Positions 2,870 to 60,559 of a stretch of DNA of 64,000 nt are shown in pieces (the first letter of the stretch is position 1; each line of letters opens with the position of its first letter). The translations under genes and the position numbers were made by a program. The notes under the pieces are model-generated. The model saw only the letters and a program-made list of their open reading frames with translations, did not search any database and was not told where the DNA came from. The DNA comes from an uncultured Alphaproteobacteria bacterium (GTDB lineage Bacteria; Pseudomonadota; Alphaproteobacteria; Rs-D84): positions 8,936 through 72,935 of the forward strand of contig CATOOF010000001.1 in assembly GCA_951801825.1 (NCBI GenBank). Direction: 5' to 3'.

Positions 2870-3244
2870 TTATATAACCTCTGGCGCCAAGGAGACAATC
2901 TTCTGAACGTCATACTTACGACGCACTTCACGGGCAATCGGCCCAAAGATACGCGTACCAATCGGATCAAAGTTGTTTTTGTTAATCAAAACAACCGCAT
3001 TGTCGTCAAAGCGGATGATAGAGCCATCCGGACGCTTTACCGGGAATTTGGTGCGAACGATAATAGCGCGCTGAACCGTACCCTTTTGAACCTTACCGCG
3101 TGGAATTGCTTCCTTAATCGCGACGACAATTTTGTCACCAACCGTTGCATAGCGGCGATGAGAACCGCCCAGAACCTTGATGCACATTGCTTTCCGCGCA
3201 CCAGAGTTATCTGCAACTGTCATAACTGTTTCATTCTGAATCAT
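2870..3244 (-). CDS. rplN: 50S ribosomal protein L14
   Basis: [28 protein letters not shown]… L14 signature. Confidence 0.94.
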
Positions 3245-3362
3245 TTTTTTACCCTATATCCTGCAAACCGGGCAATCCCCGACTGCTTTGTTACGAGTTC
3301 CGACTGTCAGCACATTTCCATCCCAAATGTGTAACCTCAAAGAACCCTCGGCTTCGGCTTTA

Positions 3363-3629
3363 TTAAGCCACTTCAACCTCATCGTTCTTGGAAACGCCAA
3401 CGCGTCCCTTTACGACCCAAGATTTTGTCTTGGAAATCGGACGATGTTCCTCTATCGCAACAATGTCGCCAACTTTAAATTCGTTGTTTTCATCGTGCGC
3501 CTTGTATTTTTTATTCTGCTTCACGAACTTACCATACAGCGGATGACGGAAACGACGTTCCACTTCAACGACAACCGTTTTGTCGTTTGCTGTACTTTTA
3601 ACTGTTCCCTGCAGTATACGTCTTGGCAT
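3363..3629 (-). CDS. rpsQ: 30S ribosomal protein S17
   Basis: …[41 protein letters not shown]; S17 family. Confidence 0.92.
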
Positions 3630-3773
3630 AACTTATGTCCCTTACCTGTTTTAACCCCCAGTTTCCGGCGCATTTGGCACCGGACACGATGGTTAAGTTG
3701 CTTGTTTTTTCAACCAATTTCGGCATATGATATCTAAAAATTTAGAAATCTCAACAAAAATCGGCAATTTTTT

Positions 3774-8754: not shown

Positions 8755-9066
8755 TTACAATTTAATCTTTACGTCAACTCCGGACGCCAAATCCAACTTC
8801 ATCAAAGCATCAACAGTCTGAGGGGTTGGGTTAACAATGTCGATTACCGCCTTATGATTGCGGATTTCGAACTGCTCACGCGACTTTTTGTCCACGTGCG
8901 GCGAACGGTTCACCGTAAATTTCTGAATCAAAGTCGGCAAGCGAACGGGTCCAACGACATCCGCGCCAGTGCGCTTTGCAGTTTTGACAATTTCTTCCAC
9001 AGATTCCATCAAGACCCTGTGGTCAAATGCCGTCAACTTGATGCGAATTTTAGATGCAGGTACCAT
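8755..9066 (-). CDS. rpsJ: 30S ribosomal protein S10 (start taken at internal Met; ORF extends to 9105)
   Basis: [27 protein letters not shown]… matches the S10/NusE family. The 13-aa upstream extension is probably not translated. Confidence 0.88.
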
Positions 9067-17810: not shown

Positions 17811-18104
17811 ATTATTGTTTTAAACCCCCATATTTTTTATAATTGCCTTGAATCTACAGGGATGTGGGTTCTGGGACTTAAGAAATCCCATACAACATCG
17901 GTGTATAGATACATCGTAATCCGCATATATGCGGCGCATTTTTCTGCGTCCGCTATTGTAAAACCCCGCATAGCGTCGGGGAGCCGTCAGCCATACCACA
18001 GGTTTATCCAAAAGCTGGCGGGGTCATTATGTTGTATGATTTTCTTAACTCCCCGACCACCAAATCCTTGGTGGTTTTTTGTTTACCAAACAAGGAGTTA
18101 GAAA

Positions 18105-18908
18105 ATGAAAAAATTAACAACAGCGTTCGCTGCATTCATCCTGGCAACCGGGGCATGCCATGGGGCCGTGGACACCAACACATATTACTATGGCGGCATT
18201 TTTTCAGAATGCACATCAAAATACATAAATGTTTACGGCATAGAAAGCCTGAACTATCGTGACAACTACTGGCGCCTGGTAACAAAAAATGGCTGGGGCG
18301 GCAGCAACTGCGCATTAAATGTTACCGCAGCATGTCAGGCCACACTTATAAACGTAATGGGCCTGCAAGAATTTAACGACAACAGTATAATAGGCGTATT
18401 AAGCAATATAATATGCTCTTGCCAGTCCGACAGCGATTGCGTAAGTGGATTTGAGTGTCAAAAAAACATCAAGGCACCATATGGCCAGTGTATCCAAATT
18501 TCAAACTATTGCACAAACAACGACCAATGCGACAATGAAAAAGGCTATATATGCATAAGCGGAAAATGTACGCAAAAATGTTATATCGACACCAAACCAG
18601 AAAACATTTACTGGGAAACGGTAAAGAAAGATTCAACATATAACGTACCAATGATTGAAAAGGAAAGCATTTATACATGCGCATCTTCTGGCTGGACCCA
18701 GACAACCAATTATCGCTGTGCGGCACATTATTACGGCACCCCAACATCAGCCACATCAACCTGTAACAGATGTCCGGCCTATCCGGGGCCGGCAACTTCT
18801 GCGCCTGGCTCTACCCTGCAAACAGACTGCTATATACCCAAGGGTACGCAATACGGCGATCAGACAGGCAGTTTTACAATCGTAAACAATGACTGCCATC
18901 ATGATTAA
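18105..18908 (+). CDS. Secreted cysteine-rich protein, paralog family member A
   Basis: Signal peptide MKKLTTAFAAFILATGACHGA; more than 25 Cys. C-terminal module …CNRCPAYPG…TDCYIPKGTQYGDQTGSFTIVNNDC is shared with the 18939 and 37093 genes. Confidence 0.6.
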   Translation: MKKLTTAFAAFILATGACHGAVDTNTYYYGGIFSECTSKYINVYGIESLNYRDNYWRLVTKNGWGGSNCALNVTAACQATLINVMGLQEFNDNSIIGVLSNIICSCQSDSDCVSGFECQKNIKAPYGQCIQISNYCTNNDQCDNEKGYICISGKCTQKCYIDTKPENIYWETVKKDSTYNVPMIEKESIYTCASSGWTQTTNYRCAAHYYGTPTSATSTCNRCPAYPGPATSAPGSTLQTDCYIPKGTQYGDQTGSFTIVNNDCHHD

Positions 18909-18916
18909 AAAATGAA

Positions 18917-18942
18917 CCGGGGACGATTGTCCCCGGCTTTAT
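18917..18942. terminator. bidirectional terminator between convergent Cys-rich genes
   Basis: CCGGGGAC-GATT-GTCCCCGG perfect hairpin with flanking A/T runs. Confidence 0.6.
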
Positions 18943-19445
18943 TCCGAATAATAGCATGGCGGCGAAAAGACAAAATCCCCCGACGTGTCTTTCCCAGATA
19001 CAGAATAACACTCTGTTATCTTTTTCGCACCCACGTCGCTGGTTCCTTCTTCATCTAAAGCGCCTACGAAATAAGCATTGCCGGGACATGCCTGACAATT
19101 TTTACCAGACCCGTAAAAACCCGCCTTGCATCTATATTGACAATACGTAACATTACAACGGGTTTCGTACGATGGCAGCCTTACAATACCGTTAGGGGCG
19201 CCCCACTCTGTCAGCCCCTTACATTCGTCATCACATTCCAGGTTTGGTTCAAAACCGCCGCCGCCATCAAAACACAAATCATTGCATCCGGCCGGACATT
19301 TCAAACATGATTCTGCCGTAACAGGCTCATATATGCCGGTTACCTCGTTCTTTTTATAACAGCATTGTACCAGCACCCCACCCAGCGCAACATTTTCCCA
19401 ACATAACGCCGCAACAACCACAACCCCCAGAACTTTCTTGATCAT
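18939..19445 (-). CDS. Secreted cysteine-rich protein, paralog family member B (start at MIKKVL; ORF extends to 19523)
   Basis: Signal peptide MIKKVLGVVVVAALCWENVALG. Module …CKAGFYGSGKNCQACPGNAYF…TECYSVSGKDTSGDFVFSPPC is parallel to member A. Confidence 0.55.
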   Translation of the reverse strand: MIKKVLGVVVVAALCWENVALGGVLVQCCYKKNEVTGIYEPVTAESCLKCPAGCNDLCFDGGGGFEPNLECDDECKGLTEWGAPNGIVRLPSYETRCNVTYCQYRCKAGFYGSGKNCQACPGNAYFVGALDEEGTSDVGAKKITECYSVSGKDTSGDFVFSPPCYYSE

Positions 19446-19585
19446 AAAACCACCGTTTGTTTTCGGCATTTTTTGGGGTTGACATATGGCGAAAATCTTG
19501 GATAAAATTGTATAAAAATACAATATAGGAAAACGGTCCTTTTAAATAGGCACCGTTTTTTTCATTCTAACAGATTGTTTGTGCA

Positions 19586-21368: not shown

Positions 21369-22376
21369 TTATATGTTCAGGCTGTTTATTTCATCAACCA
21401 GGTCATTCATATTTGCACGCAAATCTTCGGGGGCCGATGCCCACACCAGGTGTCGCATCATAAACTTGTGCACATCATCCATGGTCAGGTTTGGAATACC
21501 GGCGGCGGCGGCAACACGATGCCAACTGGCACGCGGATCGGTAAGCTTCATGCGACCACGCACAGAAAACACCCAGTTCCCATCCTGAGGCAAATCTTGT
21601 AACAACACCACCGCGGCATCTGACAATGGACGCGCGCCCCACATGTAATGATTAAAGTCCAAATCGGACCAGCGCATAGAAAACACCTGTGACTTTGGTG
21701 CGAATCCATAAATCAGCATTAAAAACGCGGCACGTAAAACCGGCGACGGCTCGGCATTGATGGCCGCAATCAGCCGAACAATTCCGGATTTAGTAAGCGG
21801 GCGAACGCGCCTGTGCTGAACCACGCGCTCCATTTTGGCGACCGGATTTTCCTTTGCATAGCCAGTCTCGATGGCATATTTAAAAATACTCTGGACCAGT
21901 TCCTGCATACGTCGTGCAATTGCCGGCCCGGGAATATTTTCAATCACGGCACAAACGTCATCATACGATATATCCGAAACATATTTATCCCGCAACCCGA
22001 CCAAATGCCGCTCAATACCGCGACGCAACTTTACCATTCCGTCTTCACTGCGACGAACGCGTGCCGCCAGATACATATCCGTCAGCCGTCCCATCGTTAT
22101 TTTACTGCGGCGCACCTTTGGTTTTTCTGCGGCACGCATTAATACCTCTGATACGCGACCGCGGGCCTGCTCAATATCCACATCAGGATAATTGCCAATA
22201 ATGATGCGCCGGTCATGCCCGCCTATTCTTTTTCGAACAAAAAAAGTTTTTATGCCGCGACTGGTAACATACATCCGCAACCGTGGTTCCGATATATCCT
22301 GGACAACATCGAACCCCTTGTTCGGCGCCGGCAGATTATCCAGGATATAAGGGTTAAAGAAGAATTGATGCGCCAC
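21369..22376 (-). CDS. Tyrosine-recombinase (P4-type integrase)-like protein, probably degenerate
   Basis: N-terminus …NLPAPNKGFDVVQDISEPRLRMYVTSRGIKTFFVRKRIGGHDRRIIIGNYPDVDIEQARGRV… matches the arm-binding DUF4102 domain of P4-like integrases. The C-terminal region lacks a recognisable HxxR…Y catalytic box, and at 335 aa it is shorter than typical family members. Confidence 0.5.
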   Translation of the reverse strand: MAHQFFFNPYILDNLPAPNKGFDVVQDISEPRLRMYVTSRGIKTFFVRKRIGGHDRRIIIGNYPDVDIEQARGRVSEVLMRAAEKPKVRRSKITMGRLTDMYLAARVRRSEDGMVKLRRGIERHLVGLRDKYVSDISYDDVCAVIENIPGPAIARRMQELVQSIFKYAIETGYAKENPVAKMERVVQHRRVRPLTKSGIVRLIAAINAEPSPVLRAAFLMLIYGFAPKSQVFSMRWSDLDFNHYMWGARPLSDAAVVLLQDLPQDGNWVFSVRGRMKLTDPRASWHRVAAAAGIPNLTMDDVHKFMMRHLVWASAPEDLRANMNDLVDEINSLNI

Positions 22377-26321: not shown

Positions 26322-27560
26322 TTATTCAACCCATATGGTCGCGGTTGCAGTACCCGTGGTTCCCACCGGAATAACCCCCAGTTTTGCCACACCAATCGCA
26401 TCACGTGTTGCAGATACACCCGATACATTCACAGATGTACCACTTACCGTGGCCGATACACCATTTGAACCGCTGGCCGTATACGTTGTATTATTATCAG
26501 TTAACTCGATTGTTGCGGCGGTGGCCTGGTTCGCCGTAAAAGTACCCTTAACAGCCCCCCCCTGTTTAATAGTAAGCGTGGCGTTATTTACCGTCGGAAC
26601 ATTTATCGTTCCCTTTGTGACGGAAATTTTACCGTCTGTCTGGCTAACATTCGTAACGACATTACCCGTCGCGCTAGACTCTGCAACATCCAGTGCATTT
26701 ATCGCATTTGTAATATCACCCGGGGTCGCCGCGGTAACACCCTTTGTAACTGTAAGCGCACCGTTATTTGCCGTAATTGCCGAAACAACGTTTCCGGCAC
26801 CGGTTGTTGTCGCCGTTGTAACTGTATTTGTATCTGTTCCAGATACTGTTATAACCCCAGATGCATCCTTGGTCACAGTAACACTGCCGGAACCTTTAAT
26901 ATTACCATTACTGCCCGCGGTCAATGTATCCTGCTTGCCCGTGGCATAATTATTGTATTGGGTTACTTTGTCCGCCGTAATACCGGAATTAAGAGCGGCC
27001 TGCTGAGCAGAACTCATCGTGGTCCATGCACCATTGGGACCACCCATCTGGTAATTTGCAGTGGATTTAACCTGATACACATTCTTGGCGGCCGCAACGG
27101 CGGCATCCCCCATTGCGGCGGCAATTTCCTCTGCCACCTTTACAGAAGGAATACGCGCATCATTGTCTGTATGCAGGGTGTCATATGTATTAATCGTATC
27201 TATGTTAATCTTTGTCGGGGCAATTGCGGCAGATGCAGAAATATCCGCATTTACAATCGTGCCATCTGCTATATCCCCAGATGTCACAGAACTTTTACCC
27301 GCCAATGTACCTAATGCCGGCTTGTTCTTTATCTGTCCCATGCCGGATGTTGCGTTCCAGTCGGGCTGAACCTGTGCCGCTGGAATATCTGGCTTGTTCG
27401 TCAAATCATTATAAGAGCCAGACGTCGCCACCGGTGCCAAGTTACCTTCTGTGCCCAAACGTTTGTTTAACAGCGTGGTTGATACAACCTCTGCACGGGC
27501 CGGTATCACAGACACAATTGCGATAAAAGAAACTGCAAAAATACCAGCTATATTCCTCAT
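26322..27560 (-). CDS. Secreted surface-fibre protein with phage-tail-fibre-type repeats
   Basis: Signal peptide, then …SGSYNDLTNKPDIPAAQVQPDWNATSGMGQIKNKP… Thr/Gly/Ala-rich beta-rich body. Shares the …NDARIPSVKVAEEIA… motif with the neighbouring gene. Confidence 0.55.
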   Translation of the reverse strand: MRNIAGIFAVSFIAIVSVIPARAEVVSTTLLNKRLGTEGNLAPVATSGSYNDLTNKPDIPAAQVQPDWNATSGMGQIKNKPALGTLAGKSSVTSGDIADGTIVNADISASAAIAPTKINIDTINTYDTLHTDNDARIPSVKVAEEIAAAMGDAAVAAAKNVYQVKSTANYQMGGPNGAWTTMSSAQQAALNSGITADKVTQYNNYATGKQDTLTAGSNGNIKGSGSVTVTKDASGVITVSGTDTNTVTTATTTGAGNVVSAITANNGALTVTKGVTAATPGDITNAINALDVAESSATGNVVTNVSQTDGKISVTKGTINVPTVNNATLTIKQGGAVKGTFTANQATAATIELTDNNTTYTASGSNGVSATVSGTSVNVSGVSATRDAIGVAKLGVIPVGTTGTATATIWVE

Positions 27561-27672
27561 AACCTAAAAACTCTCTACCCGTCTTATATTATCACAAATC
27601 CCCACTTCAACACAAGGTCATATATGGCGTAACCATATCTTTTTTGAATTACGCCATATATTCCGCCCTATG

Positions 27673-28914
27673 TTAACGTCCAATCGTTTCCCAAACATAT
27701 GCGCCGTTGCGGAACAATAACGCACAGCCCGCTTCAGAAGTTTCACAATTCGTACCGGGTTTTGGAATTGCATTATTTGCCTTGGCCAGTGCGCTGTCCG
27801 CCGTATCCTGGGCATCTGACGCCGCAGTATTTGCCTGGGTGGCCGCGGCTTGCGCCGTGGTGGCCTTGCCGCCTACTTCCTTTATCGCGGCGACAACGGT
27901 TGTCGCGGTTGTTCCCATATTTGTCGCAGAAACATCTCCAACCTCTGCATCATAGGTTGCGGTTGGTAACTTAGTTCCCAGTCCAGATGTTGTGCTTTCA
28001 ATCGCCGTCTTGTTTGCATTCGCCGTTGCGGCCGCGGCCTGGACCGCCGCATCATTTGATGTTTTATATGTGTCTAAGGCCGCCGCGGCATCGGTTCCCG
28101 CCTTTTTGGCCGTAGCCACCGCCGCATCTGTCTCTGTTTTTGTATATGCGTCACCAATATTATAGCCCGCCAATGTAGTGGCTTTATCCGCCTTGCCTTC
28201 AACCGCGGTGTTTATTGCATCAACCGCAACCTTAATTTTATTATCAACACTGCCATCAACAGTATCTGCCGCATTCAAGGTTGCAATCGCATCGGTGTTT
28301 GTCTTGATTGCATCAATTTTTTCCTTTGTTGCACCAGAGACCATAACCGCACTGTTATTAATGGCAGTAATCGCGGACGTATTTTCTGCAATGTCCGCCT
28401 TTAGTTCTGTATCATCATATGTCGCGGCTGTTTTTGCATCATCAATTAACTCAACAACCGTCTTGTCTGCGGGTACGGTACCGATTGTCTTATTAATTGC
28501 ATTATCTGCCGCGGTACGCGCCGCTATCTCGTCATCAATTCTTGTGCCCAATGCGGTATCCGCAGATGTACGTGCCGCTGATTCTGCATCCATCTCTGCC
28601 TTGGTAAGACCTTTGTTACTGGCCGTCAATGGCGTAACAAAATCTTCCTTTTTTCTTGAATAGATATTTGCAGCCGCCGTTACCGCCGCATCAGCCGATG
28701 CACTGGCAATGTCTTCGGCAACTTTTACTGTTGGAATACGTTCATCATTATCAGCATTGCTGGTATTATAAGAAGACATGTTGTCAATTTTCAACGTATC
28801 CTGTTTTGTTTTGGCAATATCATCAACATACGTTGTTGATGCAATATCCGCACGTGCCGCACCAACCGCCAAAAACGCCGCCAGAGAAGCTACCAAAAAT
28901 CCTGCTCTTTTCAT
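27673..28914 (-). CDS. Secreted Ala/Thr-rich coiled-coil surface protein (paralog)
   Basis: Signal peptide MKRAGFLVASLAAFLAVGAARA, then DIASTTYVDDIA…, then …NDERIPTVKVAEDIA…; a long coiled-coil; C-terminal IPKPGTNCETSEAGCALLFRNGAYVWETIGR. Confidence 0.55.
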   Translation of the reverse strand: MKRAGFLVASLAAFLAVGAARADIASTTYVDDIAKTKQDTLKIDNMSSYNTSNADNDERIPTVKVAEDIASASADAAVTAAANIYSRKKEDFVTPLTASNKGLTKAEMDAESAARTSADTALGTRIDDEIAARTAADNAINKTIGTVPADKTVVELIDDAKTAATYDDTELKADIAENTSAITAINNSAVMVSGATKEKIDAIKTNTDAIATLNAADTVDGSVDNKIKVAVDAINTAVEGKADKATTLAGYNIGDAYTKTETDAAVATAKKAGTDAAAALDTYKTSNDAAVQAAAATANANKTAIESTTSGLGTKLPTATYDAEVGDVSATNMGTTATTVVAAIKEVGGKATTAQAAATQANTAASDAQDTADSALAKANNAIPKPGTNCETSEAGCALLFRNGAYVWETIGR

Positions 28915-29015
28915 AATATATGATACCTAAATAATTTTATCCGCTATGTGATGCGTTGCACGCATCTACTGTACCCGGCGGTCGTTTATCCAACCACCGG
29001 GATTTTTTTTATAAC

Positions 29016-29831
29016 TTAAACGCCCGGCGTCGGTGCTGGTGCTGGGTCTGCACGTTCAATTTGTTCCCATTTCAAGGTCGCAACATCGCCAAGGGTCTTG
29101 ATGGTTAAAACATATGTTCCATCTTCGCCTGTTGTCGTAACCTTTTTAATGGATTCGTTCAGCGCCTGTGTCGCATCAGCCTGGGCTTTTTCAACCGCCG
29201 TGTTCAATGCGGTATCTGCCGCTTTATACGCAGTGTCCAATGCACCAATCGCATCAGCGTTAGCTTTTTCTGCTGCTGTTGCACGGTCCGTTTCAACCTT
29301 TACCGCGTTGGCAATATCTGTTGCAACCTGTGTTTTATCCGCCTTGTCAGAAACAGCTGTATCAATAGCGTCTTTGATTGCACCCTCTTCCGCAGTAATA
29401 GAGTTTGTAATAATTGTTTTAACCTGGTCCTGTGTTACTTTGCTAGTATTCAATTCATTGATTGCCTCGGTCAGTGTTTTATTCGTTGTCCCCAGTTCGG
29501 CTGTTCCAACCGTCCCCTCCAACGCACTAATATCATCCTCGGCCGTATATAAGCGCGCATCAATATCCTTTAAATCCGCCGCCGAAGCCTTGGAATCCAA
29601 TGCCTTGGATATTTCCGATGTATCGCTGTTCAGTTCTTCTGTAATCCGATTGGTAATTGTTGTGTTAATACCGTCGCGAAATTCCGTAACAGTTGATTCC
29701 AACGTTGTGACGCTACCCTGTACTTTGCCAATTTCTTGATCAACATAGGCCCTGGATGTAACGGCCGCATTTGCATCGACTGCAACCAAGCCCAACAGAA
29801 CTGTAAAAATACCAGTTGTAAGTTTTTTCAT
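29016..29831 (-). CDS. Secreted coiled-coil surface protein (paralog)
   Basis: Signal peptide; N-terminal AAVTSRAYVDQEI motif; heptad-rich Thr/Ala/Asp body; Pro-rich C-terminus. Confidence 0.5.
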   Translation of the reverse strand: MKKLTTGIFTVLLGLVAVDANAAVTSRAYVDQEIGKVQGSVTTLESTVTEFRDGINTTITNRITEELNSDTSEISKALDSKASAADLKDIDARLYTAEDDISALEGTVGTAELGTTNKTLTEAINELNTSKVTQDQVKTIITNSITAEEGAIKDAIDTAVSDKADKTQVATDIANAVKVETDRATAAEKANADAIGALDTAYKAADTALNTAVEKAQADATQALNESIKKVTTTGEDGTYVLTIKTLGDVATLKWEQIERADPAPAPTPGV

Positions 29832-29868
29832 AATTTTTTCCTTTCCTTAAACTTTATTTATCTGAAGA

Positions 29869-30693
29869 TTAATCTGCCGGAGTAACCGTGCTTTCCAGCG
29901 GCGCCGTAACATCCAGCCACATCAGGCTATTACCGGCTGAATCGACCGACAGAACACAGCGTCCCGACTCTGCGGCACAGGACCCTGTCGGTTTCGGTAT
30001 CGCCAGGTCAATAATTTTAGCGTTTGCTTCTTCCTTTGTATAAACATCGGCTACGTTGGCCTTTTTATCCAGTTCAGTTTTTAACGTGCCAGATTCAACA
30101 GATTTATCAATTGCGTCGGTCACAACATCGCCATTGCTGACAATTGTGGTAATAATTTCTTTTACGGATTCATTTTGTTCCAATGCATTCGTAATCTTTT
30201 CCGTAACGGTTGCATTTGTTACCAAATCCGCCGCCGCCACAGTACCCGCGACATAATTACCGGTTGCATCAATTGTTGCGATATTGCCGGCCTTGATTGC
30301 TTCGCCCGTCAGCTTGTCTGCCTTGCCTGCGACATCCGTTTCCAGTTGTCCAACAGTTGTATTCAAATTATTAACAGTTGTGCTAATCTGGTTTACAGTC
30401 GATGTATCCGCCTTTGTGTCCAGTGCCTGGTCAATGGCTGTTTTCAGTTCACTGTTTTCAGACTGCAGTTCGTTTGTAATATTTGTTACGATAACATCCT
30501 GCAACTGCTCTGTTTTAGTATAATTGTTTTCAATTGTTGTCTGCAGTTCCTTAACATCTGTCGAAACCTTGTTATCAACATATTGTTTGCTTGCGATTTG
30601 AGGCGCCGCCGATGCACTGGCAATCCCAGCACTTACCATTATAGCCGCTGCAAATCCGGAAAAAGCGACATTCTTTACTTTCATTTTTTTCAC
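29869..30693 (-). CDS. Secreted coiled-coil surface protein (paralog)
   Basis: Signal peptide; …QIASKQYVDNKV… motif; DVYTK-type repeats; C-terminal …IPKPTGSCAAESGRCVLSVDSAGNSLMWLDV…. Confidence 0.5.
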   Translation of the reverse strand: MKKMKVKNVAFSGFAAAIMVSAGIASASAAPQIASKQYVDNKVSTDVKELQTTIENNYTKTEQLQDVIVTNITNELQSENSELKTAIDQALDTKADTSTVNQISTTVNNLNTTVGQLETDVAGKADKLTGEAIKAGNIATIDATGNYVAGTVAAADLVTNATVTEKITNALEQNESVKEIITTIVSNGDVVTDAIDKSVESGTLKTELDKKANVADVYTKEEANAKIIDLAIPKPTGSCAAESGRCVLSVDSAGNSLMWLDVTAPLESTVTPAD

Positions 30694-30741
30694 TTCCTTT
30701 TTTTACACTTGGCCCAAGGGCCGTTTATAATGATTTGACAG

Positions 30742-32592
30742 TTACTCTGTAACCACTTCAAACCAGCCCTTTTGACCATTGCTAATCGCCAGTACGAAAT
30801 CACCTTCTTCTGGTGCGCCTTCGACAGTAACCGCCTGGTCCGCCTTTGTCAGCGATGCCTGAACATCCGCCGCCAATTTCGTTTTTGCAATTGCCGCATC
30901 ATCTGCAACATCTGCATTTGTAATTGTGTCTTTTGCCGCCAATGTGCCCAAATCTTCTGTTTTGGCATATCCGCTTAAGTCTATATTGCCGGCCTCTACA
31001 ACCGCATCCTCAAGCGCTTTTTTAGTTGCAAACTTTTCATCAGCCGCTGATTTCGTATAAACATTTTCCGCATCAGCCTTTAACGCCAGCGACGTTGTTG
31101 CCGCATCAGCCGCCGTCTTGGCCGCATCGGCCTTATCGGATGCCGTTCCTGCCGCCGTCAATGCGGACGCCGCCACACCAGATGCCGCATCGGCCGCTGT
31201 TTTTGCGGCCCCGGCTGTTGATACCGCCAACGCCGCATCGGCAACCGCGCCGCTAACATCGACCGCCATTTCATCAACATCAGTCGCCAGTGTATTTACA
31301 CGCCCCTCCAGAGCGGTTACCGTTGCGCCTTTTGCATAATCGGCCAAATCGGTAACATTTGCCTTTTTCTCAAGCGCAGTGTTAACATCAGCCGTTTTGG
31401 CATATTCGGATAAAGCCGCACTCATGTCGCCTGCAACAATATCGGCAACTTTCTCGTCAACCTGGGTCTTTGTGTAAACATCTGCAGATTTTGCATAATC
31501 AGCCAGAGATTGGTGCTCTGTCAGATACTTTGCATCTGACTGGCCCTTTGTGTAAACATCCGAAACATTCGCCTTGTCCGCCAGCGCCGTATTAACCCAT
31601 GCCTTAGGTGCAAGATCCGCAGTTGCGTTTGTAATGCTTTCTTCTACCGCCGTTTTCGTGGCATACGCCGCCAGCTGTGTCTTGTCCGCCTTGTCAGACA
31701 ATGCATTGGCCATTTCGGTCGATGTAACATGCCCCGCATCCGCAATTGCTGTTTTAATCGCCTGATTCATTTGCTCTGTTGTGGAATACTTAGCGGAATC
31801 AAGGCCCTCGCCCGGGTCACCCTTGTCACCCTTTTCACCTTTCTCGCCCGCCGGGCCCTGGGGACCGGTTAAGCCTTGGGGCCCCTGGGGGCCGACCAGC
31901 TCACTAATTGCAATCAAATCCTGCCACTGGGTATCGCCGACATAGCGCCACTGAATATGGGTTGCATTCTTAGAAATCTCAACCTCGCGGCCATTTGCAC
32001 CAACAATGGTTTCCAGCCCGTCTTTCAGCGCATCTATATTCAGGAAAATTTCATCATCTTCTATTTCAATATAGCCATCGCCCGTCAACACATTTTGCTT
32101 GTCTGCAAAAAAACCGTCTATTTCATCATTTGTGTACAAAGCACCAACCTGGGATTCAAGTTCGCCAACACGGTCTGTCAATGCGCCGGCAATTCCTGGA
32201 TCCATGGAACCACCGCCACTGTTGCTAACGCCGCTGCCCGGTTTTTGATTTTTGATAGAACTGCCCCCACTGACAGATGTGCCGCCACCCAAATATTTGC
32301 CAATAGACAAACGTGGCGCGGTTGCAACACGGCCCGTCGTTGCCGTACCGCGATTTGAAGACCCAGACGCAGACGCCCCGCCAGCCGACGGCGCCACGCG
32401 CATTGATCCCGCGCGCACTGCGTTTATGGCCCCACTGGGGGCGCCGCCACCCGCGGCCGCAGATGATGCACTGGAATACGTTCCTGCCCCCCCTAACGAC
32501 CGCACCGACGCGGCCCCAAAAGCGCCCGATATCGCCGATGTGCACAAAACACAAACAACTGCCAATCGTGATATTTGAACTCTGTTTTTCAT
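30742..32592 (-). CDS. Secreted collagen-like-repeat surface-fibre protein (start at MKNRVQ; ORF extends to 32631)
   Basis: Signal peptide; Gly/Ser-rich linker; …IQWRYVGDTQWQDLIAISELVGPQGPQGLTGPQGPAGEKGEKGDKGDPGEG (10 GXY triplets); then about 300 aa of KADKTQL/DVYTK-type repeats. Confidence 0.6.
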   Translation of the reverse strand: MKNRVQISRLAVVCVLCTSAISGAFGAASVRSLGGAGTYSSASSAAAGGGAPSGAINAVRAGSMRVAPSAGGASASGSSNRGTATTGRVATAPRLSIGKYLGGGTSVSGGSSIKNQKPGSGVSNSGGGSMDPGIAGALTDRVGELESQVGALYTNDEIDGFFADKQNVLTGDGYIEIEDDEIFLNIDALKDGLETIVGANGREVEISKNATHIQWRYVGDTQWQDLIAISELVGPQGPQGLTGPQGPAGEKGEKGDKGDPGEGLDSAKYSTTEQMNQAIKTAIADAGHVTSTEMANALSDKADKTQLAAYATKTAVEESITNATADLAPKAWVNTALADKANVSDVYTKGQSDAKYLTEHQSLADYAKSADVYTKTQVDEKVADIVAGDMSAALSEYAKTADVNTALEKKANVTDLADYAKGATVTALEGRVNTLATDVDEMAVDVSGAVADAALAVSTAGAAKTAADAASGVAASALTAAGTASDKADAAKTAADAATTSLALKADAENVYTKSAADEKFATKKALEDAVVEAGNIDLSGYAKTEDLGTLAAKDTITNADVADDAAIAKTKLAADVQASLTKADQAVTVEGAPEEGDFVLAISNGQKGWFEVVTE

Positions 32593-32652
32593 AACTCTCT
32601 CTATACCTGTCAATGATATCAAATTACGCAAACCGCAACAACATTTTTCTGG

Positions 32653-33387
32653 TTAAAATTCATACCTGATACCAAAAGATACCGAATTATCCAAAATCAT
32701 GCCTGTTTTGCTTTTAAAGCCATATACATTGTCATCGGTGTCTTGGAAGCCCAGCTTTAATTCAGCCCCGGTCATACCGGCCAAACGATACCGCAAATCC
32801 AGCACCAGATTTTCATCCAGCTGATGCGTCCACCCCAGCATCAGTCCCGCCATCGGCGACAGTGCCGTTTTAGTCTTGTCATAGCCGTTGAAATAATCAC
32901 CGCTTATCTTATAATTGGACAACGCCGCACCAACACCCGCGCCGACATACAGCCCGTTCGTAAAGTCATAATATCCGTTCAGCATAACATACGGAATCGA
33001 CAGCGAAAATTTTGCAACCGCATCTTCGTCGCTGAAATAGCCCAAATATCCGCCTTCCAGTTCCGCGCGCCAGAAATAGTTAATTTTCTTACCCGCCGCA
33101 ATCGAGCCGCCGAACACAGGCTCAAACGAATATTTATCCTCGCTATGGCTTTCATCCGCGCTGAACCCCTCAGAAACACTGTATTCGTTCTTGAAATTCA
33201 GCAGGCTCAGTTCTGCACGCCCAGTTATATACCAGCCTGTTTTTGCTTTGTCCTTATAATTATATGTAACATCGTATCCACCGCGGCCGTCTCTTGAAAT
33301 ATGACTGGGCTGTGCGGTGCGCACCGCCGCAAAAGACGGCACGACAAATAATCCCATCAAAACACTTACTGACACTAATTTTTTCAT
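32653..33387 (-). CDS. Outer-membrane beta-barrel protein (OmpA-N/Opa-like small barrel)
   Basis: Start at MKKLVSVSVLMGLFVVPSFA signal; alternating beta-strand pattern; C-terminal …VSFGIRYEF. Confidence 0.6.
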   Translation of the reverse strand: MKKLVSVSVLMGLFVVPSFAAVRTAQPSHISRDGRGGYDVTYNYKDKAKTGWYITGRAELSLLNFKNEYSVSEGFSADESHSEDKYSFEPVFGGSIAAGKKINYFWRAELEGGYLGYFSDEDAVAKFSLSIPYVMLNGYYDFTNGLYVGAGVGAALSNYKISGDYFNGYDKTKTALSPMAGLMLGWTHQLDENLVLDLRYRLAGMTGAELKLGFQDTDDNVYGFKSKTGMILDNSVSFGIRYEF

Positions 33388-33524
33388 GAAAATACCCCTC
33401 CATTTATTCCTTAAGTATATCATAAAAAAGGATATGCTCCAACAACAAAAAACAGATATTGACCGTTTTCTCTTTTTCTGCTACGTTTTTAGCATACTAA
33501 TTGTACACGGAAAGAGGTAACAAC

Positions 33525-36904: not shown

Positions 36905-37092
36905 GTTGTTTTTACAATAAAAAAACCGACTGAATTCAGTGCCTAAAAAAAACGGTCAGTTATATCAAGCATATATTCTCGCACCGATTTTAGCGTCAAT
37001 CCTGGGGTTAAGTCAACGCAAAAATATGCCAGAAAAAGGACCGTTTTCCTGGCAATGCGGCGCATATATTTTCCATCAACAAGGGGACTTTT

Positions 37093-37839
37093 ATGGCGGC
37101 ACGACACAGATTTTATTTACTTATTGCGGGATTGGCCTCTTGCGCCATGATGAATAAAAGCCACGGAAAAGACATAGGCTACACAATCGGCGAAGTATTG
37201 TATTCCAGCCCATACTGCGCATCCCCGGCATCGGGGGATGGCGATACCCCATGCCAAGTTTGCGTCCCATCCAGAATAGCCTATGATAAATGCAACTATA
37301 GCACCAGTTGCATTGACAACTGGATAAACGACGAAAACATTTGCATTGATAACACATGCAGCAGCTACAACGGCACCAGCAACATACATTATGGGGGCGC
37401 ATACGGAAAAAATTCTGGCGGCGGATTTTATATTTGCGACGACTATAGCGGGTGGAAATATTCCGCAACCCAGCCTGACACAAATCCGGACAATTGCTCT
37501 AACCAATATGACGGCAACCACGGTCATCTTATAAATTGTTGTGATTTTGATCCGGATGCAGGCATCGGCGGTTCATGGTGCCCATCAGGATACGATCGTG
37601 AATACTGTGACAGCGGCTATTACGGCGGATTCAATAACTGCGCCCAATGCCCCAGTGGTCCAAACTATGTTACCGGCCCAATCAACGATTACTCCCCCCA
37701 GGGACCAATATCTGGAAAATCAAGCGAATCCGGAAACTATTCAAAAAACAAATGCTATATTCCGCCACTGGGCGGCTCTGAACACTACATGGACAGCACG
37801 GGCCAATATGTATTTACCAGCAACTGTTATTGGAGCTGA
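37093..37839 (+). CDS. Cysteine-rich lipoprotein, paralog family member C
   Basis: Lipobox-like LIAGLASC; module …CDSGYYGGFNNCAQCPSGPNYV…KNKCYIPPLGGSEHYMDSTGQYVFTSNC parallels members A and B. Confidence 0.55.
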   Translation: MAARHRFYLLIAGLASCAMMNKSHGKDIGYTIGEVLYSSPYCASPASGDGDTPCQVCVPSRIAYDKCNYSTSCIDNWINDENICIDNTCSSYNGTSNIHYGGAYGKNSGGGFYICDDYSGWKYSATQPDTNPDNCSNQYDGNHGHLINCCDFDPDAGIGGSWCPSGYDREYCDSGYYGGFNNCAQCPSGPNYVTGPINDYSPQGPISGKSSESGNYSKNKCYIPPLGGSEHYMDSTGQYVFTSNCYWS

Positions 37840-37939: not shown

Positions 37940-38897
37940 ATGCAAACACAAAACACACCTGATCTGCTGTCATACATCTCGGAATTTTATCGCACGACGG
38001 ACACAAAACTGAACCATATCATACAATCAATAGAGACACTAAAAAAACACGTCACACGCCTTTATGCGCTGCGAACGGACATATCCGACATACCACCGGC
38101 ATCGGGCCATCTACTGTTAAAACAACAGGGATGCCTGAAACTGTTATCAATGATTGACCGGGTGTTAAAAGATGCCGGCATTGAATACTTTCTGGGATAC
38201 GGAACACTGTTGGGTGCGGCCCGCGGCGGCGGATTCATACCATGGGACGACGATATTGACATATGCCTGATGCGTGCAGATTTTGACCGCGCCGTGGACG
38301 TATTAACCCGGCATTTTAATCATGACCTGTTTTCAACCCGCTGGGGGCTAAGTGGCGGAATATTCAAAGTACTGTTCACAAAAAAAAATCTGTGTAGACC
38401 TGTTTCCATGGGATACATATCATACCCGAATGGAAACGGAAGACCAGCGCACAGAATTTGTAAACACATATATTCACGCAATGGATACCGCCCGCCAGAT
38501 GGAGGCAGACCAGCGCATGCTGGCCGAAAATCCCGGGGCGATTGTATCATCCACGCACCAAAATTATTGCCAGATTCGCGACGATATAATCATGAACGAC
38601 ATCGCCCCTGATTACGAGCATGGCGACATATTTGAAGGCATTGACTGGCAGACATTCCCGGAACGCATCGGCAGATTTTTCCATGCCAACCCGTTTCATC
38701 ATGAATGGATTTTCCCGCTGGGCCAGATAGAATTCTGTGGCCACATGTTCCCGGCCCCAAATAATGTAGACGCTGTTCTGACAACACGCTTCGGCGACTG
38801 GGGGACACTGCGTCCCGATTTTGCCCGCCACAACGGCAATCCGTTTTCTTATCAAGAACTGGAATCTGTTCGCAAATTTATCGGTACCGAACAATGA
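37940..38897 (+). CDS. licD: LicD-family phosphotransferase, split over two frames at an A9 tract
   Basis: Frame 1 (from 37940) carries …GTLLGAARGGGFIPWDDDIDICLMR… (LicD DxD motif). Frame 2 (from 38352) carries …KKICVDLFPWD… and the C-terminal half. The frames switch within aaaaaaaaa at 38380-38388. Confidence 0.65.
38380..38388 (+). repeat. homopolymeric A9 tract inside licD (frameshift site)
   Basis: cacaaaaaaaaatc read directly. Confidence 0.9.
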
Positions 38898-42557: not shown

Positions 42558-43502
42558 ATGAACTACAAAGATTTTGGATTAGTTAATACCCGTGCGATGT
42601 TCGCCGACGCGATTGCGCGCCGTTATGCCGTACCGGCGTTTAACTTTTACAACATGGAAACATTGTCGGCAATTCTTGCCGCCGCCACCGAAACACGCAG
42701 CCCGGTTATCTTGGCCGTATCGGAATCGGCGATGAAATACATGGGCGACGATTTGCTGATGGGAATGATTTGGGGTAAAAAATTTAAGCCTGAAAACGGC
42801 GTTGCCCTGCATCTGGACCATGGCGGCAGCTTTGAGGCGTGCGAGCATGCGATAAAGCTGGGCTTTTCCTCTGTCATGATAGACGGCAGCAAACTGTCAT
42901 TCGCAGAAAACGCCGAACTGGCCCGCCGTGTTGCAGACCTGGCCCACAGCCACGATGTATCGGTAGAAGCCGAACTGGGCACCCTGGCCGGAATAGAAGA
43001 CGAAACCACATTCAGCGACACATCCAGCTATACCAACCCAGAAGATGTTATCAAGTTTGTTGGCGACACCGGCATTGATTCCCTGGCAATTGCAATCGGA
43101 ACCAGCCACGGCGCCTACAAACGCAAATCGGACGATGAAAAGCTGCGCTTTGACATTCTGGCGGAAATTGCGCAAAAGCTGCCCCAGTTCCCGCTGGTAC
43201 TGCATGGCGCGTCATCCATCCCCCAGAACTTTGTAAAAACAATAAATGAATTCGGTGGCGACATCGCAGGTGCACGCGGCATCGACCCGACCCAGCTGCG
43301 CCAGGCAACCGAAATGAACATCTGCAAGATAAACGTTGACAGCGATTCCCGCCTGGCGTTTACAGCGGGCGTTCGCAAAAACCTGGCTGAAAAGCCGGCC
43401 GGCTTTAATCCGCGCGACTATCTGGGCGCGGGGCGCAAGCTGATTGTCGAAAACTGTATCGATGAAATCAAAAACATCATGGGCAGCGACAACAAGCTGT
43501 AA
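42558..43502 (+). CDS. fba: Fructose-bisphosphate aldolase, class II
   Basis: …AVPAFNFYNMETL…HLDHGGSFE…LHGASSIP… class II aldolase motifs; 314 aa. Confidence 0.9.
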   Translation: MNYKDFGLVNTRAMFADAIARRYAVPAFNFYNMETLSAILAAATETRSPVILAVSESAMKYMGDDLLMGMIWGKKFKPENGVALHLDHGGSFEACEHAIKLGFSSVMIDGSKLSFAENAELARRVADLAHSHDVSVEAELGTLAGIEDETTFSDTSSYTNPEDVIKFVGDTGIDSLAIAIGTSHGAYKRKSDDEKLRFDILAEIAQKLPQFPLVLHGASSIPQNFVKTINEFGGDIAGARGIDPTQLRQATEMNICKINVDSDSRLAFTAGVRKNLAEKPAGFNPRDYLGAGRKLIVENCIDEIKNIMGSDNKL

Positions 43503-43508
43503 TATAAA

Positions 43509-43531
43509 CGCCCCAAACGGGGCGTTTTTTA
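43509..43531 (+). terminator. rho-independent terminator after fba
   Basis: CGCCCC-AAAC-GGGGCG followed by T6. Confidence 0.7.
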
Positions 43532-43849
43532 TTTTTCTTTCTTATCTGTTTTTTCCTTGCTATCTACGCTCCAATAAATTCCATCGGTCCAGTAATCCAA
43601 ACCAAACATAAATATTTTAAGCAAGAAAGTAGATGGCATTTTCAGCTCGCCCCGCTCGTACTTACGCAGGACCGCCCGCGATATCCCCATTTCTTCGGCC
43701 AGTATTTGCCGCGATACCCCCAACATCTGGCGCGCGCGATACAGCAGCACACTCGGCGGCAGATTACTCGAAAACCTTTTAGCAATAAATGGCGTAACAG
43801 ATATCCGACGCGCCGGATTCGGCGCACGCTTGTTTAGTTGAACATTCAT
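43529..43849 (-). CDS. XRE-family helix-turn-helix transcriptional regulator
   Basis: …LYRARQMLGVSRQILAEEMGISRAVLRKYERGE… HTH_3 motif. Confidence 0.65.
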   Translation of the reverse strand: MNVQLNKRAPNPARRISVTPFIAKRFSSNLPPSVLLYRARQMLGVSRQILAEEMGISRAVLRKYERGELKMPSTFLLKIFMFGLDYWTDGIYWSVDSKEKTDKKEK

Positions 43850-43866
43850 TTTTTCTCTCCATAGTT

Positions 43867-44125
43867 TTTAAGTTATTAAAAACACCGCCCGTGACGAATG
43901 GGCGGTTGGAGGTTCAAAACTATCATAACAATAGCGTTGCTTATTCAATGTATTCGCAACCCTCCAACCGGTTGTGGAGTAATAAAGTGTTATGAGAGGT
44001 TTTGAAGCCCCACACCGGATGTCACCCGATGCGTTATGAATTGTAGCATAAAACTTGGAAAAAGCAAATATTAACTATAACGCCGGCAACGTAGTGTACA
44101 AGACGTACATGAGTTGCCGGCGTTT
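43867..44125 (-). other. structured intergenic element / candidate sRNA or structured efp 3'UTR
   Basis: Minus-strand order: 12-bp perfect hairpin AACGCCGGCAAC…GTTGCCGGCGTT (44079-44125); long-range IR GGTTGGAGG (43894-43902) with CCTCCAACC (43962-43970); terminator CCGCCC-loop-GGGCGG followed by T5 (43867-43895). Confidence 0.35.
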
Positions 44126-58829: not shown

Positions 58830-60341
58830 CTATTGAATACCCACCTGAAATTCGTCACCATATCCGGCGACCACCTGGCCGCGGATAGAGCATTTTATAT
58901 CTTCGAACCCGCCTTTGACCTGGTTCTTTTTTATTACATTACTGGTAATCAATCCGCCGGCCGTACCCAATACAACCCCTGCAACAGAATCCGACACCAG
59001 GCGCGATGTATTAAAGTTGCCTTCCTTATTCTTCCATACAGACGTATTTAAACCATCCTTCAGCCTGTTTAAATTGCTGACTATCGAGCTAATAAGCTGT
59101 TGTTGTGCCTGGGCGCTGATATCGCAGCGCATCGTTGTACGATTTAATTGCTTTTTTTCGTCATTACATCTGCATTCATCACCAACCATATGGGCATCGG
59201 GAATTTTATCGCACAGCTTTTCTTCCTCGCTGGGTTCCGGCGCCAATGCACAGTTTTGCGGATTCAGCCCCAGTAACGCCGTATACAACGACATAAATCC
59301 TTCTTGTGTTTTGTCCGCCGACGCACAGTATGTATCTATCTGGGCAATCTGCTGTATGATTTCACTGTTTTCAGCGCAGGCCACCTTCCAGTTTGCAATA
59401 GTAGCCATTATCGTTGCATCACACGTATAAACCGCGACTGGCTGGCCGGAGTCAGGATTCGGATTCGTTACCACTGGCGCAACGGCAACGGCAACAGCCG
59501 AAACAGCCTTTTTTACACATTTTGCGTAAAGACGCTTACCATCGTGTGTTTTCCAACCTTTATTTTCCTCTGCCGGGGAAAATGTGCTTTCGCATTCAAC
59601 AATCATTGTTGTTGAGCCCTGCTTATCGTAATGACACTTTCGATAACAGTTCTTGGCACCCATTTTTGTTTGAGAATCCAAACAAGATACATATGCATCC
59701 TTACAGCTTGAAGAAACACACTCTTTTTTCGCACTGTTATATTCACCGCTATTTCCGCATGTAATATACAGACAGGCATCCCCGCTTGCCACGATTACGC
59801 CGGATGCACCATCCAGAGACTTGCTTACAGTTGCTTTTATTTCCGCCTTTGTCCCCGTGGCCTGTTTATCTTGTATAGGGCTGTCACTGCAGATTGGCAG
59901 GCTGAACTTTTCCCACACGTCATCCGTGAAACCTGTACGACATTTAAAAACATCTGAGCCGTTTGTAACAATTGTCCCGTTTGGGCACTCATAATGCTCG
60001 CCTATTTGGTATGTGTCACACTCTAAACATTGATCTCCAAAATATAAGTATTCTTTCGCCTCATAAGAGACAGATATTTTTCCACCCAAATTGCTACCGA
60101 CAACATAACCGGCATAGCCGCCCATTATCATCCCACCCGGAATCGGAGAGACAAAACCCGCCAATGCACCCCGTCTGGCGCCAATTAACGCGGCCAAATT
60201 TTTTATAGACGATTTTGCACCGCATTTGCTGGTCAGATAGCAGGCGTTTGTAATATCGTCATTTGTTCCAGCCTTTGCGGCTATTGGTAATATAGTTGAC
60301 ACACAAAGAATACATACGCAAAGTGTCTGTTTTATATTCAT
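58830..60341 (-). CDS. Large secreted cysteine-rich protein
   Basis: Signal peptide MNIKQTLCVCILCVSTILPIAAKA; about 40 Cys; CxxC / ECPNGT-type motifs loosely related to the paralog family at 18105, 18939 and 37093. Confidence 0.5.
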   Translation of the reverse strand: MNIKQTLCVCILCVSTILPIAAKAGTNDDITNACYLTSKCGAKSSIKNLAALIGARRGALAGFVSPIPGGMIMGGYAGYVVGSNLGGKISVSYEAKEYLYFGDQCLECDTYQIGEHYECPNGTIVTNGSDVFKCRTGFTDDVWEKFSLPICSDSPIQDKQATGTKAEIKATVSKSLDGASGVIVASGDACLYITCGNSGEYNSAKKECVSSSCKDAYVSCLDSQTKMGAKNCYRKCHYDKQGSTTMIVECESTFSPAEENKGWKTHDGKRLYAKCVKKAVSAVAVAVAPVVTNPNPDSGQPVAVYTCDATIMATIANWKVACAENSEIIQQIAQIDTYCASADKTQEGFMSLYTALLGLNPQNCALAPEPSEEEKLCDKIPDAHMVGDECRCNDEKKQLNRTTMRCDISAQAQQQLISSIVSNLNRLKDGLNTSVWKNKEGNFNTSRLVSDSVAGVVLGTAGGLITSNVIKKNQVKGGFEDIKCSIRGQVVAGYGDEFQVGIQ

Positions 60342-60559
60342 TTTTCCCCCAAATTACCGCCGCCTGAAAAACGGTGGTTTAATTAGGCATATATCTATGC
60401 CTTGTTTTTAGACATTTTAGCATATTTTCAGCCCTTTTCCAAATTCAATTTTCTGCCTAAAAAAAAGGACCGTTTTCCTGATGCGGAAATGTTCTCTCAA
60501 CACGACGGCGCCCTAAATACAAATCAAGAAAAAACACACGCCCCATTTGGGGTGGTGGT

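Follow-up and report, generated by a model that had tools for sequence, protein, structure and literature searches.

The VSPs of Giardia and the Vsa proteins of Mycoplasma pulmonis are variable surface protein families of host-associated microbes. Here we compare with them a bacterial family represented by three genes in a 64,000-nucleotide stretch of DNA (the window; positions 8,936 to 72,935, forward strand, of contig CATOOF010000001.1, assembly GCA_951801825.1) from an uncultured alphaproteobacterium of the lineage Rs-D84. Judged by sequence, the three products, which we call A, B and C, are paralogues in a large family of small exported, putatively disulfide-rich proteins from gut alphaproteobacterial metagenome-assembled genomes (MAGs) with reduced genomes; the family appears to be so far undescribed and has no entry in Pfam (2025) or NCBIfam (2026). 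The best fit for A, B and C is, in our assessment, a variable cell-surface or secreted binding repertoire, a reading that we regard as about evenly balanced between right and wrong. As with the VSPs and Vsa, there are many paralogues per small genome, a variable and putatively exposed part is joined to a conserved C-terminal part, and ON/OFF control of single genes is possible; the Cys-rich, CxxC-containing composition is shared with the VSPs in particular. Unlike the VSPs, the family has neither a transmembrane tail nor the CRGKA motif, it has no homology to Vsa, and whereas the VSPs and Vsa are described surface variants, here we infer both switching and surface location.

Bacteria of the Rs-D84 and Candidatus (Ca.) Enterousia type, the latter belonging to the order Rs-D84, are widespread in animal and human guts, uncultured, and have genomes of ~1 Mb (0.67–1.6 Mb in Rs-D84) without the tricarboxylic acid cycle, respiration, many biosynthetic pathways or standard transporters (PMC12306168); that study of the lineage makes no mention of cysteine-rich proteins.

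Three exported proteins with a common C-terminal module

The features on which this section relies are the following (ORF, open reading frame; aa, amino acids).
18105–18908, plus strand: family member A, an ORF of 267 aa with a predicted signal peptide, a variable Cys-rich region and the C-terminal module (~18696–18905).
18939–19445, minus strand: family member B, an ORF of 168 aa with a predicted signal peptide, a short Cys-rich region and the C-terminal module (~18942–19151).
37093–37839, plus strand: family member C, an ORF of 248 aa with a lipoprotein-type signal (LASC lipobox) and the C-terminal module (~37585–37836).
18915–18938, no strand assigned: a bidirectional hairpin terminator common to the convergent genes A and B, with 10-pair and 8-pair stems and T-runs on both strands.
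58830–60341, minus strand: D, a 503-aa exported Cys-containing protein outside the family, as judged by hidden Markov model (HMM), hhalign and locus comparison.

The last ~70 residues of A, B and C align and constitute the module, in which the positions C, YG, C-x2-C-P, G, S-x2-G, C-Y, D-x2-G and C are invariant among the three. We built an HMM from the three modules; among all of the window's 838 six-frame ORFs with a length of 40 aa or more, it matched A, B and C alone (E-values of 2e-34, 2e-33 and 3e-27, the last being that of A); the next-best match, at 42582–42896 on the minus strand (E-value 0.15), lies antisense within an aldolase gene and was rejected as a module carrier. These results bear out much of a first-pass annotation of the window, which had proposed three ORFs with a common C-terminal module of conserved Cys spacing, a lipobox on the 37093–37839 protein and a shared terminator between two convergent members. 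It had also proposed the protein D as a fourth member with looser variants of the module, and this we could not uphold: D matched neither the three-sequence HMM nor a family HMM of 147 sequences, its hhalign probability was 0.1%, no homolog of it was found in any of the fetched family loci, and it had no match in Pfam or NCBIfam.

The Cys content of A, B and C is 7.3–9.5%. While A and B have N-termini of the ordinary hydrophobic type, C carries L-A-S-C at residues 14–17 of its N-terminus (MAARHRFYLLIAGLASC), a lipobox closing an N-terminal hydrophobic segment as in bacterial lipoproteins, recognized solely as a match to the pattern [LVI][ASTVI][GAS]C. Below, L-numbers designate family loci fetched from other contigs and P-numbers relatives found by profile search. 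The 147-sequence family HMM matches A at an E-value of 1e-19; the A gene has a good Shine-Dalgarno (SD) sequence, AAGGAG, and A has a positional relative (53% identity) in locus L071. A protein identical to B is encoded on 20 public contigs, and one identical to C on CAPYVX010000001.1 (591 kb) of MAG GCA_948743385.1; C also has a 99% variant (P0001) and a 65% orthologue (P0151).

A word-indexed protein search with the three-module alignment gave no matches; a full HMM scan with the module profile found 758 cluster representatives with E-values of 1e-3 or less among 1.84 billion proteins, and because one profile retrieves so many, the module is not a chance resemblance and the paralogous family of exported Cys-rich proteins foreseen in the first-pass annotation is real. 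Most members are 150–290 aa long. Among the best 150 relatives the median length is 206 aa and the median Cys content 8.5%, in 134 of them no more than 5 aa follow the module, the N-terminus is signal-like in 125, and lipobox-like motifs occur in only 13. The parts are arranged in the order signal peptide, hypervariable Cys-rich part and, at the extreme C-terminus, the module; the regions N-terminal of the module cannot be aligned between paralogues, and the proteins close with C-Y-Y-x-N and lack a hydrophobic tail. The module consensus reads yrCaaGYYg..t.g.sgCt.CP...g..gtS.aGst.it.CYiP.gt...D.tG...yt.nCyY...

We followed the distribution of the family by scanning one genome per species with a tight module alignment and two narrow peptide patterns. 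In this way 116 loci were confirmed, and with few exceptions the MAGs in which they lie bear the label uncultured Alphaproteobacteria, Rickettsiales or Ca. Enterousia; as the scan used two narrow patterns, it does not establish that the family is absent from other taxa. Guts of roe deer, rabbit, chicken, mouse, human and termite are among the sources, in agreement with the host-associated lineage that had been suspected. Synteny with the window was also seen in two contigs that carry the labels Bacteroides and Muribaculaceae and are therefore probably mis-binned. Copy number reaches four per 12 kb, and CANSHD01, with two listed contigs adding up to 0.97 Mb, has at least 13 copies.

The copies are scattered among housekeeping genes. 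Between the window and several of these MAGs the housekeeping proteins are 60–93% identical with gene order kept, yet the family genes at equivalent positions are strongly diverged; the genes of C and its L043 counterpart, and of B and its L008 counterpart, are in such conserved synteny. The commonest neighbor of family genes encodes an uncharacterized exported protein of ~358 aa, often with a 280-aa companion (e.g., L070 2–1255 and 1255–2094), but the 11 loci at which it occurs are too few for a functional link.

The module and the function of the proteins

The first-pass annotation had likened the module to eukaryotic GCC2/GCC3 units and to ephrin-receptor or TNFR-type Cys repeats, and this resemblance stands for the family in part but was not recovered for the window proteins by score. 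A, B and C gave no match to any Pfam family even at E-values up to 10, and none at threshold in NCBIfam, the only sub-threshold match being to Myxo_Cys_RPT (16.1 bits) in the variable part of A. A match to a known bacterial family, which had been named as grounds for rejecting the proposal, was thus not found in Pfam or NCBIfam. On the other hand, three relatives (P0020, P0048 and P0100; 34.2, 32.0 and 31.3 bits) exceed the 23.1-bit gathering cut-off of PF07699, Ephrin_rec_like (formerly GCC2_GCC3), and the relatives above this cut-off carry extra copies of a C..GYY....C..CP unit. Sub-threshold PF07699 matches fall on the first half of the module (P0017 residues 195–231 and P0055 residues 229–264), and four of the 55 members of alignment A3 match PF07699 at an E-value of 1 or less. 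The Cys spacing of PF07699 (C-x2-C-P-x-G-x-Y/S...G...C in a ~48-aa unit) is found in A, B, C and the family consensus, even though none of the three scores as a member; their membership in Ephrin_rec_like is accordingly not established by sequence. The Giardia VSP model (PF03302) was matched weakly by two of the 55 members and by none of A, B and C, weak matches to relatives scoring 14–16 bits against a cut-off of 31.4, and the family shows neither a VSP-level score nor the C-terminal membrane anchor with its CRGKA tail.

Structure prediction gave a weak resemblance of the same kind. The AlphaFold2 model of B has a pLDDT of 75 (80–96 over the C-terminal 100 residues), and that of the module alone, with a pLDDT of 83.2, consists of six beta strands in hairpins. 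In Foldseek searches with both models most matches were to TNFR-family and EphA2 cysteine-rich domains; the best PDB matches include the cysteine-rich domains of OX40, CD40, HVEM and EphA2, and the module-only model additionally brought up those of TNFR1, RANK and CaSR, all with E-values of 0.28 or more and thus non-significant; a PDB sequence search found no similar chain. Taken together, the module probably resembles ephrin-receptor and TNFR-type cysteine-rich units through a distant relation. Going by its consensus and predicted fold, it is putatively composed of one ephrin-receptor-like (GCC2_GCC3-type) unit followed by a family-specific beta-hairpin cap ending in C-Y-Y-x-N.

In common with Ephrin_rec_like and the TNFR cysteine-rich domains, the module shows in its first half the spacing C-x2-G-Y-Y...C-x2-C-P...G..S..G....C; its predicted disulfide-stapled beta-hairpin ladder has TNFR and EphA2 cysteine-rich domains as best PDB matches, at the non-significant E-values given above. 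It differs from them in having a single unit where they have tandem arrays, and in the cap CY.P..G...D.tG.f.yt.nCYY.n that follows this unit at the very C-terminus; moreover, the family proteins are bacterial, 150–290 aa long and equipped with Sec signals, and A, B and C stay below every threshold. We have filed the family with bacterial proteins built from ephrin-receptor/TNFR-like Cys-rich units. A further protein found in the profile search, P0091 (1101 aa), combines a prepilin-like N-terminus and Listeria-Bacteroides-type repeats with tandem C..GTY....C..CP.G..S..GA....CY units, and the same type of Cys repeat therefore occurs in unrelated bacterial surface proteins. Should the ephrin-receptor-like module be confirmed structurally, a mainly eukaryotic scaffold would extend to a bacterial surface repertoire.

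The resemblance raises the question of whether the proteins are eukaryote-like effectors or mimics, with a module acquired from a eukaryotic host or protist that would engage receptors of the ephrin-receptor or TNFR type. The relatives above the Ephrin_rec_like threshold, the two weak matches to the VSP model, the fold matches to TNFR and EphA2 cysteine-rich domains and the gut-living habit of a lineage with reduced genomes would suit such an origin. The window proteins themselves, however, have no significant similarity to any eukaryotic family, the repeat type recurs in the unrelated bacterial protein P0091 with its pilin-like N-terminus, no secretion system for host-cell delivery is linked to the family loci, and the libraries searched contain no eukaryotic counterpart of the cap 'CY.P...D.tG...nCYY', so that we consider mimicry unlikely. 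Still less probable in our view is that these are periplasmic proteins using the CxxC for thiol-disulfide exchange or metal chaperoning. The CxxC is invariant in the module and the proteins are exported, as this would demand, but Pfam and NCBIfam gave no thioredoxin-like, Dsb, copper-chaperone or other match, a hairpin ladder is predicted in place of a thioredoxin fold, and at least 10 hypervariable paralogues in a ~1-Mb genome are ill-suited to a housekeeping chaperone.

The binding repertoire is the better supported reading because it accounts together for the export signal, the disulfide-type scaffold, the combination of a hypervariable part with a conserved handle, and the many dispersed and separately regulated copies in a ~1-Mb genome. 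The family, its anatomy, distribution and copy number and the two upstream elements are observed; disulfide bonding, surface location, binding function and switching we infer. The repertoire would serve as a coat or as adhesins for contact with host or partner cells, with the variable part as the exposed face and the conserved module as a common handle for anchoring, assembly or export. The family genes stand alone, each preceded by a 5' control element of its own: a structured leader (A and most relatives) or a ~85-bp segment between inverted, covarying sites, with a promoter or a cassette of ribosome-binding site (RBS) and start codon (B and C). A dedicated element for each gene suggests ON/OFF control gene by gene. 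Several observations weigh against the repertoire, among them the missing Pfam, NCBIfam and PDB sequence matches and the non-significance of the structural matches given above. In addition, a lipobox is found in C alone among the three window proteins, no conserved neighbor and no secretion, anchoring or immunity gene was found linked to the family across the loci, the taxonomic range is biased by the narrow patterns of the distribution scan, and the putative switches described below showed no orientation polymorphism in the assemblies compared.

With a share of more than 1% of the genes, export, hypervariability and a control element for every copy, the family is a leading candidate for the interface through which these bacteria contact their partners, and it offers targets for antibodies, binding screens and enrichment.

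A structured leader resembling sRNA-Xcc1

Two copies of the leader lie in the window.
17960–18104, plus strand: structured, sRNA-Xcc1-like 5' leader of A (nhmmer 17960–18113; Rfam RF02221 at 29.5 bits, E-value 0.015, over 17975–18065).
43852–43974, minus strand: second copy of the leader (nhmmer E-value 1.4e-7), upstream of a 106-aa HTH-type protein (43529–43849, minus strand).

The closest described RNA, sRNA-Xcc1 (RF02221), lies in Xanthomonas upstream of the symE toxin gene in integron cassettes. The leader described here, 130–150 nt long, directly precedes A and, in the fetched loci, about 88 out of ~117 family genes; about 100 copies occur across L002–L080, and 43 copies were aligned. The HTH-type protein downstream of the second window copy has a weak Pfam HTH_3 match. 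From 5' to 3' the leader consists of a CUCCUGA box, a variable loop, GGUCAGGAGGGU, two hairpins, AACCUCCUGACC and a short GC hairpin, and its 3' end is made up of this terminator-like GC hairpin with a U-run, an A-rich spacer, the SD sequence CAGGAG and the ATG. The leader of A accordingly shows a CUCC box, a GGAGG-type box, two hairpins, a CCUCC box, a terminator-like hairpin with U-run, an SD sequence and the ATG. Two alternative helices are conserved, one between box 1 and box 2 and the other between box 2 and box 3 (93.5% paired), and where box 2 is changed to GGUUGGAGG both partner boxes are changed too in the alignment.

The form in which box 2 pairs with box 3, together with the two hairpins, aligns to the whole RF02221 model, and the outer helix, two inner hairpins and 3' tail are thus common to sRNA-Xcc1 and to the leaders of A and its relatives, as is the position immediately before a protein gene. 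The copies in the window (29.5 bits), in L037 (39.1) and in L043 (42.5) all score below the gathering cut-off of 53 bits. Further differences from sRNA-Xcc1 are the added 5' CUCCUGA box, which can pair with the GGAGG box in an alternative helix, the terminator-like hairpin, and the taxa and downstream genes concerned. With its two anti-SD-like boxes and its SD-like box, the leader may control termination and/or ribosome access. As a setting both new and abundant, the leader should help in working out the role of this RNA class.

The link to symE also bears on the possibility that the family proteins are secreted antagonists (bacteriocin-like toxins) or signalling ligands, whose variable part would be the active one and whose module would serve export or receptor targeting. 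Like such proteins they are small, secreted, Cys-rich, multi-copy and fast diverging, and a relative of their leader precedes a toxin gene in the Xanthomonas cassettes. We nonetheless find this improbable, given that an adjacent immunity-like or transporter gene is not conserved and that there is no similarity to known toxin domains in Pfam or NCBIfam. All three readings discussed so far (mimicry, redox or metal binding, and antagonism) are less supported than the surface repertoire.

The Box1-M-Box3 element

The genes B, C and D are preceded by a second kind of element, two sites (Box1 and Box3) around a middle segment (M).
19446–19554, minus strand: Box1-M-Box3 element before B (Box3 19446–19469, Box1 19528–19554), from alignment with 17 related elements.
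36939–37054, plus strand: Box1-M-Box3 element before C (Box1 36939–36961, core CGGTCA; Box3 37026–37054, core GGACCG).
60360–60485, minus strand: Box-M-Box element before D (site cores 60369–60380 and 60464–60475).

The described systems closest to these elements are the invertons, including the 'partial intergenic' ones that overlap gene ends, in which inverted sites enclose a short segment with a directional expression signal (Chanin et al., bioRxiv 10.1101/2023.03.11.532203). The Box-M-Box elements have this arrangement, inverted repeats flanking a directional expression signal, and their cores are likewise locus-specific and matching within each pair. They differ from described invertons in their very short segment, in one variant that carries an RBS, start codon and signal-peptide n-region in place of a promoter, and in showing one orientation per locus in the assemblies compared. 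Both this element and the leader are new as elements upstream of the family genes.

Two peptides led us to the element: 'MPNPNVGL', with which some relatives begin, and 'MPKTNGGF', found upstream of B. The former had looked like a special N-terminal export signal, which we rejected as the main explanation, as it is translated conserved Box3 DNA that is sometimes in frame with the gene and elsewhere part of a 7–15-codon ORF. Beyond the window, Box1-M-Box3 elements are present in L040, L066, L068, L073, L051, L060, L007, L077 and L029, and further in L043, L048, L021, L004, L053, L082, L085 and L101. Both sites have the near-palindromic form ATGCCKAAtccAAA-N6-TTT, with locus-specific cores that are mutually reverse-complementary (CCTCCG/CGGAGG, CGGCCG/CGGCCG, CCACCG/CGGTGG and CGGTCC/GGACCG), and two further core groups have a constant GG/GG mismatch. 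In the B element the sites are near-palindromic with partly complementary cores, GGACCG and CGGTGG, and Box3 of the C element, an example of a full site, is a palindrome with 11-bp arms around the 6-nt core GGACCG. The core-to-core spacing is 83–85 bp in 19 instances and 95–96 bp in two. Over the 21 instances, Box1 and Box3 are complementary at 81.3% of positions (71.1 ± 1.6 in shuffles, 24–54% in slid controls), and they covary, with 28 two-sided changes where 12.7 were expected, no one-sided change and a single G-U cell. The window contains eight occurrences of the site motif where 0.83 would be expected, and five of them fall within the B, C and D elements. No Rfam match was found for the element, and an attC or integron site was rejected since the R'/R'' consensus does not fit.

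The middle segment is of two types. In the promoter type it contains a sigma70-like promoter and the gene retains its own SD and ATG: the promoter is TTGACA-18-TAAAAT (11/12; 19479–19508, plus strand) at B and TTGACT-18-TAAAAT (minus strand, 37016 to 36987) at C, each directed away from the gene, and TTGGAA-17-TAAAAT (60442 to 60414, minus strand) at D, directed toward it; elsewhere it points toward the gene in L053+ and L085 and away from it in L101 and L082. In the cassette type, seen at ~15 loci in other genomes, a fixed promoter lies upstream of Box1, and the opposite strand of the middle holds GGAGG-N6-8-ATG followed by ~19 open codons (MQKSGIF...). In-silico inversion places this frame in-frame with the gene in 13 of 13 cases, which are homologous copies of conserved length and therefore not 13 independent tests; the inverted cassette would supply the charged start of the signal peptide, the hydrophobic part of which lies after Box3.

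Weighing against inversion, the 28 assemblies that cover the three window loci, among them the window itself, contained no flipped copy: the orientation is that of the window in 10 further assemblies for B, nine for D and six for C (99% variant of C), a comparison that is weak because consensus assemblies hide minority orientations. A search of 5.8 billion protein clusters with in-silico ON-state N-termini, which likewise counts against it, returned only OFF-state read-through ORFs. The one natural ON-type arrangement (L053, minus-strand gene) has a damaged downstream site, and a metagenome scan for the predicted palindromic recombinant junction gave 13 matches, 11 of them unrelated hairpins and the two relevant ones (L082 and L085) full sites that are palindromic, with no flip at the same locus. 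As for a recombinase, a 335-aa tyrosine integrase (21369–22376, minus strand) is encoded 2 kb from B, between acpP/fabF and the next operon, with a 66% identical copy at the same syntenic position in L008, and an Xer-like recombinase adjoins a family gene pair in L100; no consistent linkage of recombinase genes was found across the loci. Upstream of the 65% orthologue of C we found three different contexts, with breakpoints exactly at Box3 (L100 2449–3015, minus strand, and 3001–3750, plus strand; L102), the L100 context being a head-to-head junction with a start-less family gene beside the Xer-like recombinase. As the L100 and L102 contigs have a coverage of 1.7–2.7x, these breakpoints could be a real rearrangement or a chimeric assembly at the 22-nt shared site.

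The same data may be explained at the RNA level, with Box1-M-Box3 either a leader whose Box1 and Box3 pair with each other in the mRNA, or a divergent gene for a small RNA or small peptide, its invertible look being a by-product of near-palindromic sites. Box1/Box3 complementarity would form an RNA helix just as well, the single orientation across the 28 assemblies and the purely OFF-state reading frames among the clusters would be expected, and the outward promoters at B and C are followed by a terminator-like hairpin, which makes a short RNA possible. Yet the changes between the boxes are always two-sided (28 cells, none one-sided) with a single G-U cell, which fits DNA repeat identity better than RNA pairing; the opposite strand of the middle has a strong SD, an ATG and an open frame that comes into frame on inversion in silico; the middle holds RBS and start where the fixed upstream signal is a promoter and holds a promoter where the fixed signals are RBS and start; and this promoter faces the gene in D, L053+ and L085 and faces away in B, C, L101 and L082. 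We find the RNA-level explanation possible but rather doubtful, and regard a real site-specific inversion of the Box elements, present or past, as the more plausible, at or slightly short of an even balance.

Taken one step further, the family might be a phase-variable surface-coat repertoire, functionally analogous to the Giardia VSPs and Mycoplasma Vsa, with genes switched singly by ~85-bp invertons that carry a promoter or an RBS, start codon and signal start; we put this forward only tentatively and think it less probable than not. Inversion of a cassette would toggle translation and export and leave transcription as it is, and the locus-specific matched cores would keep each switch private. 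If the Box-M-Box elements do invert, they would be among the smallest invertons known and of a new design, an invertible RBS with start codon and signal-peptide start, a variant that would not have been described before.

Two further regions of the window deserve mention. Next to C, a run at 38380–38388 (plus strand) in a licD-like gene (37940–38897) has nine A residues where seven other assemblies, including GCA_948743385.1, have eight, and the extra A splits the 318-aa LicD-family (phosphocholine transferase) gene into two overlapping ORFs; the difference is either slipped-strand phase variation or a sequencing error. At 26322–33423 on the minus strand there is a run of six ORFs (412, 413, 271, 274, 629 and 256 aa) with no Pfam match on record in the L001 gene table except a weak OMP beta-barrel match in the last, and this run may be another lineage-specific envelope gene cluster.

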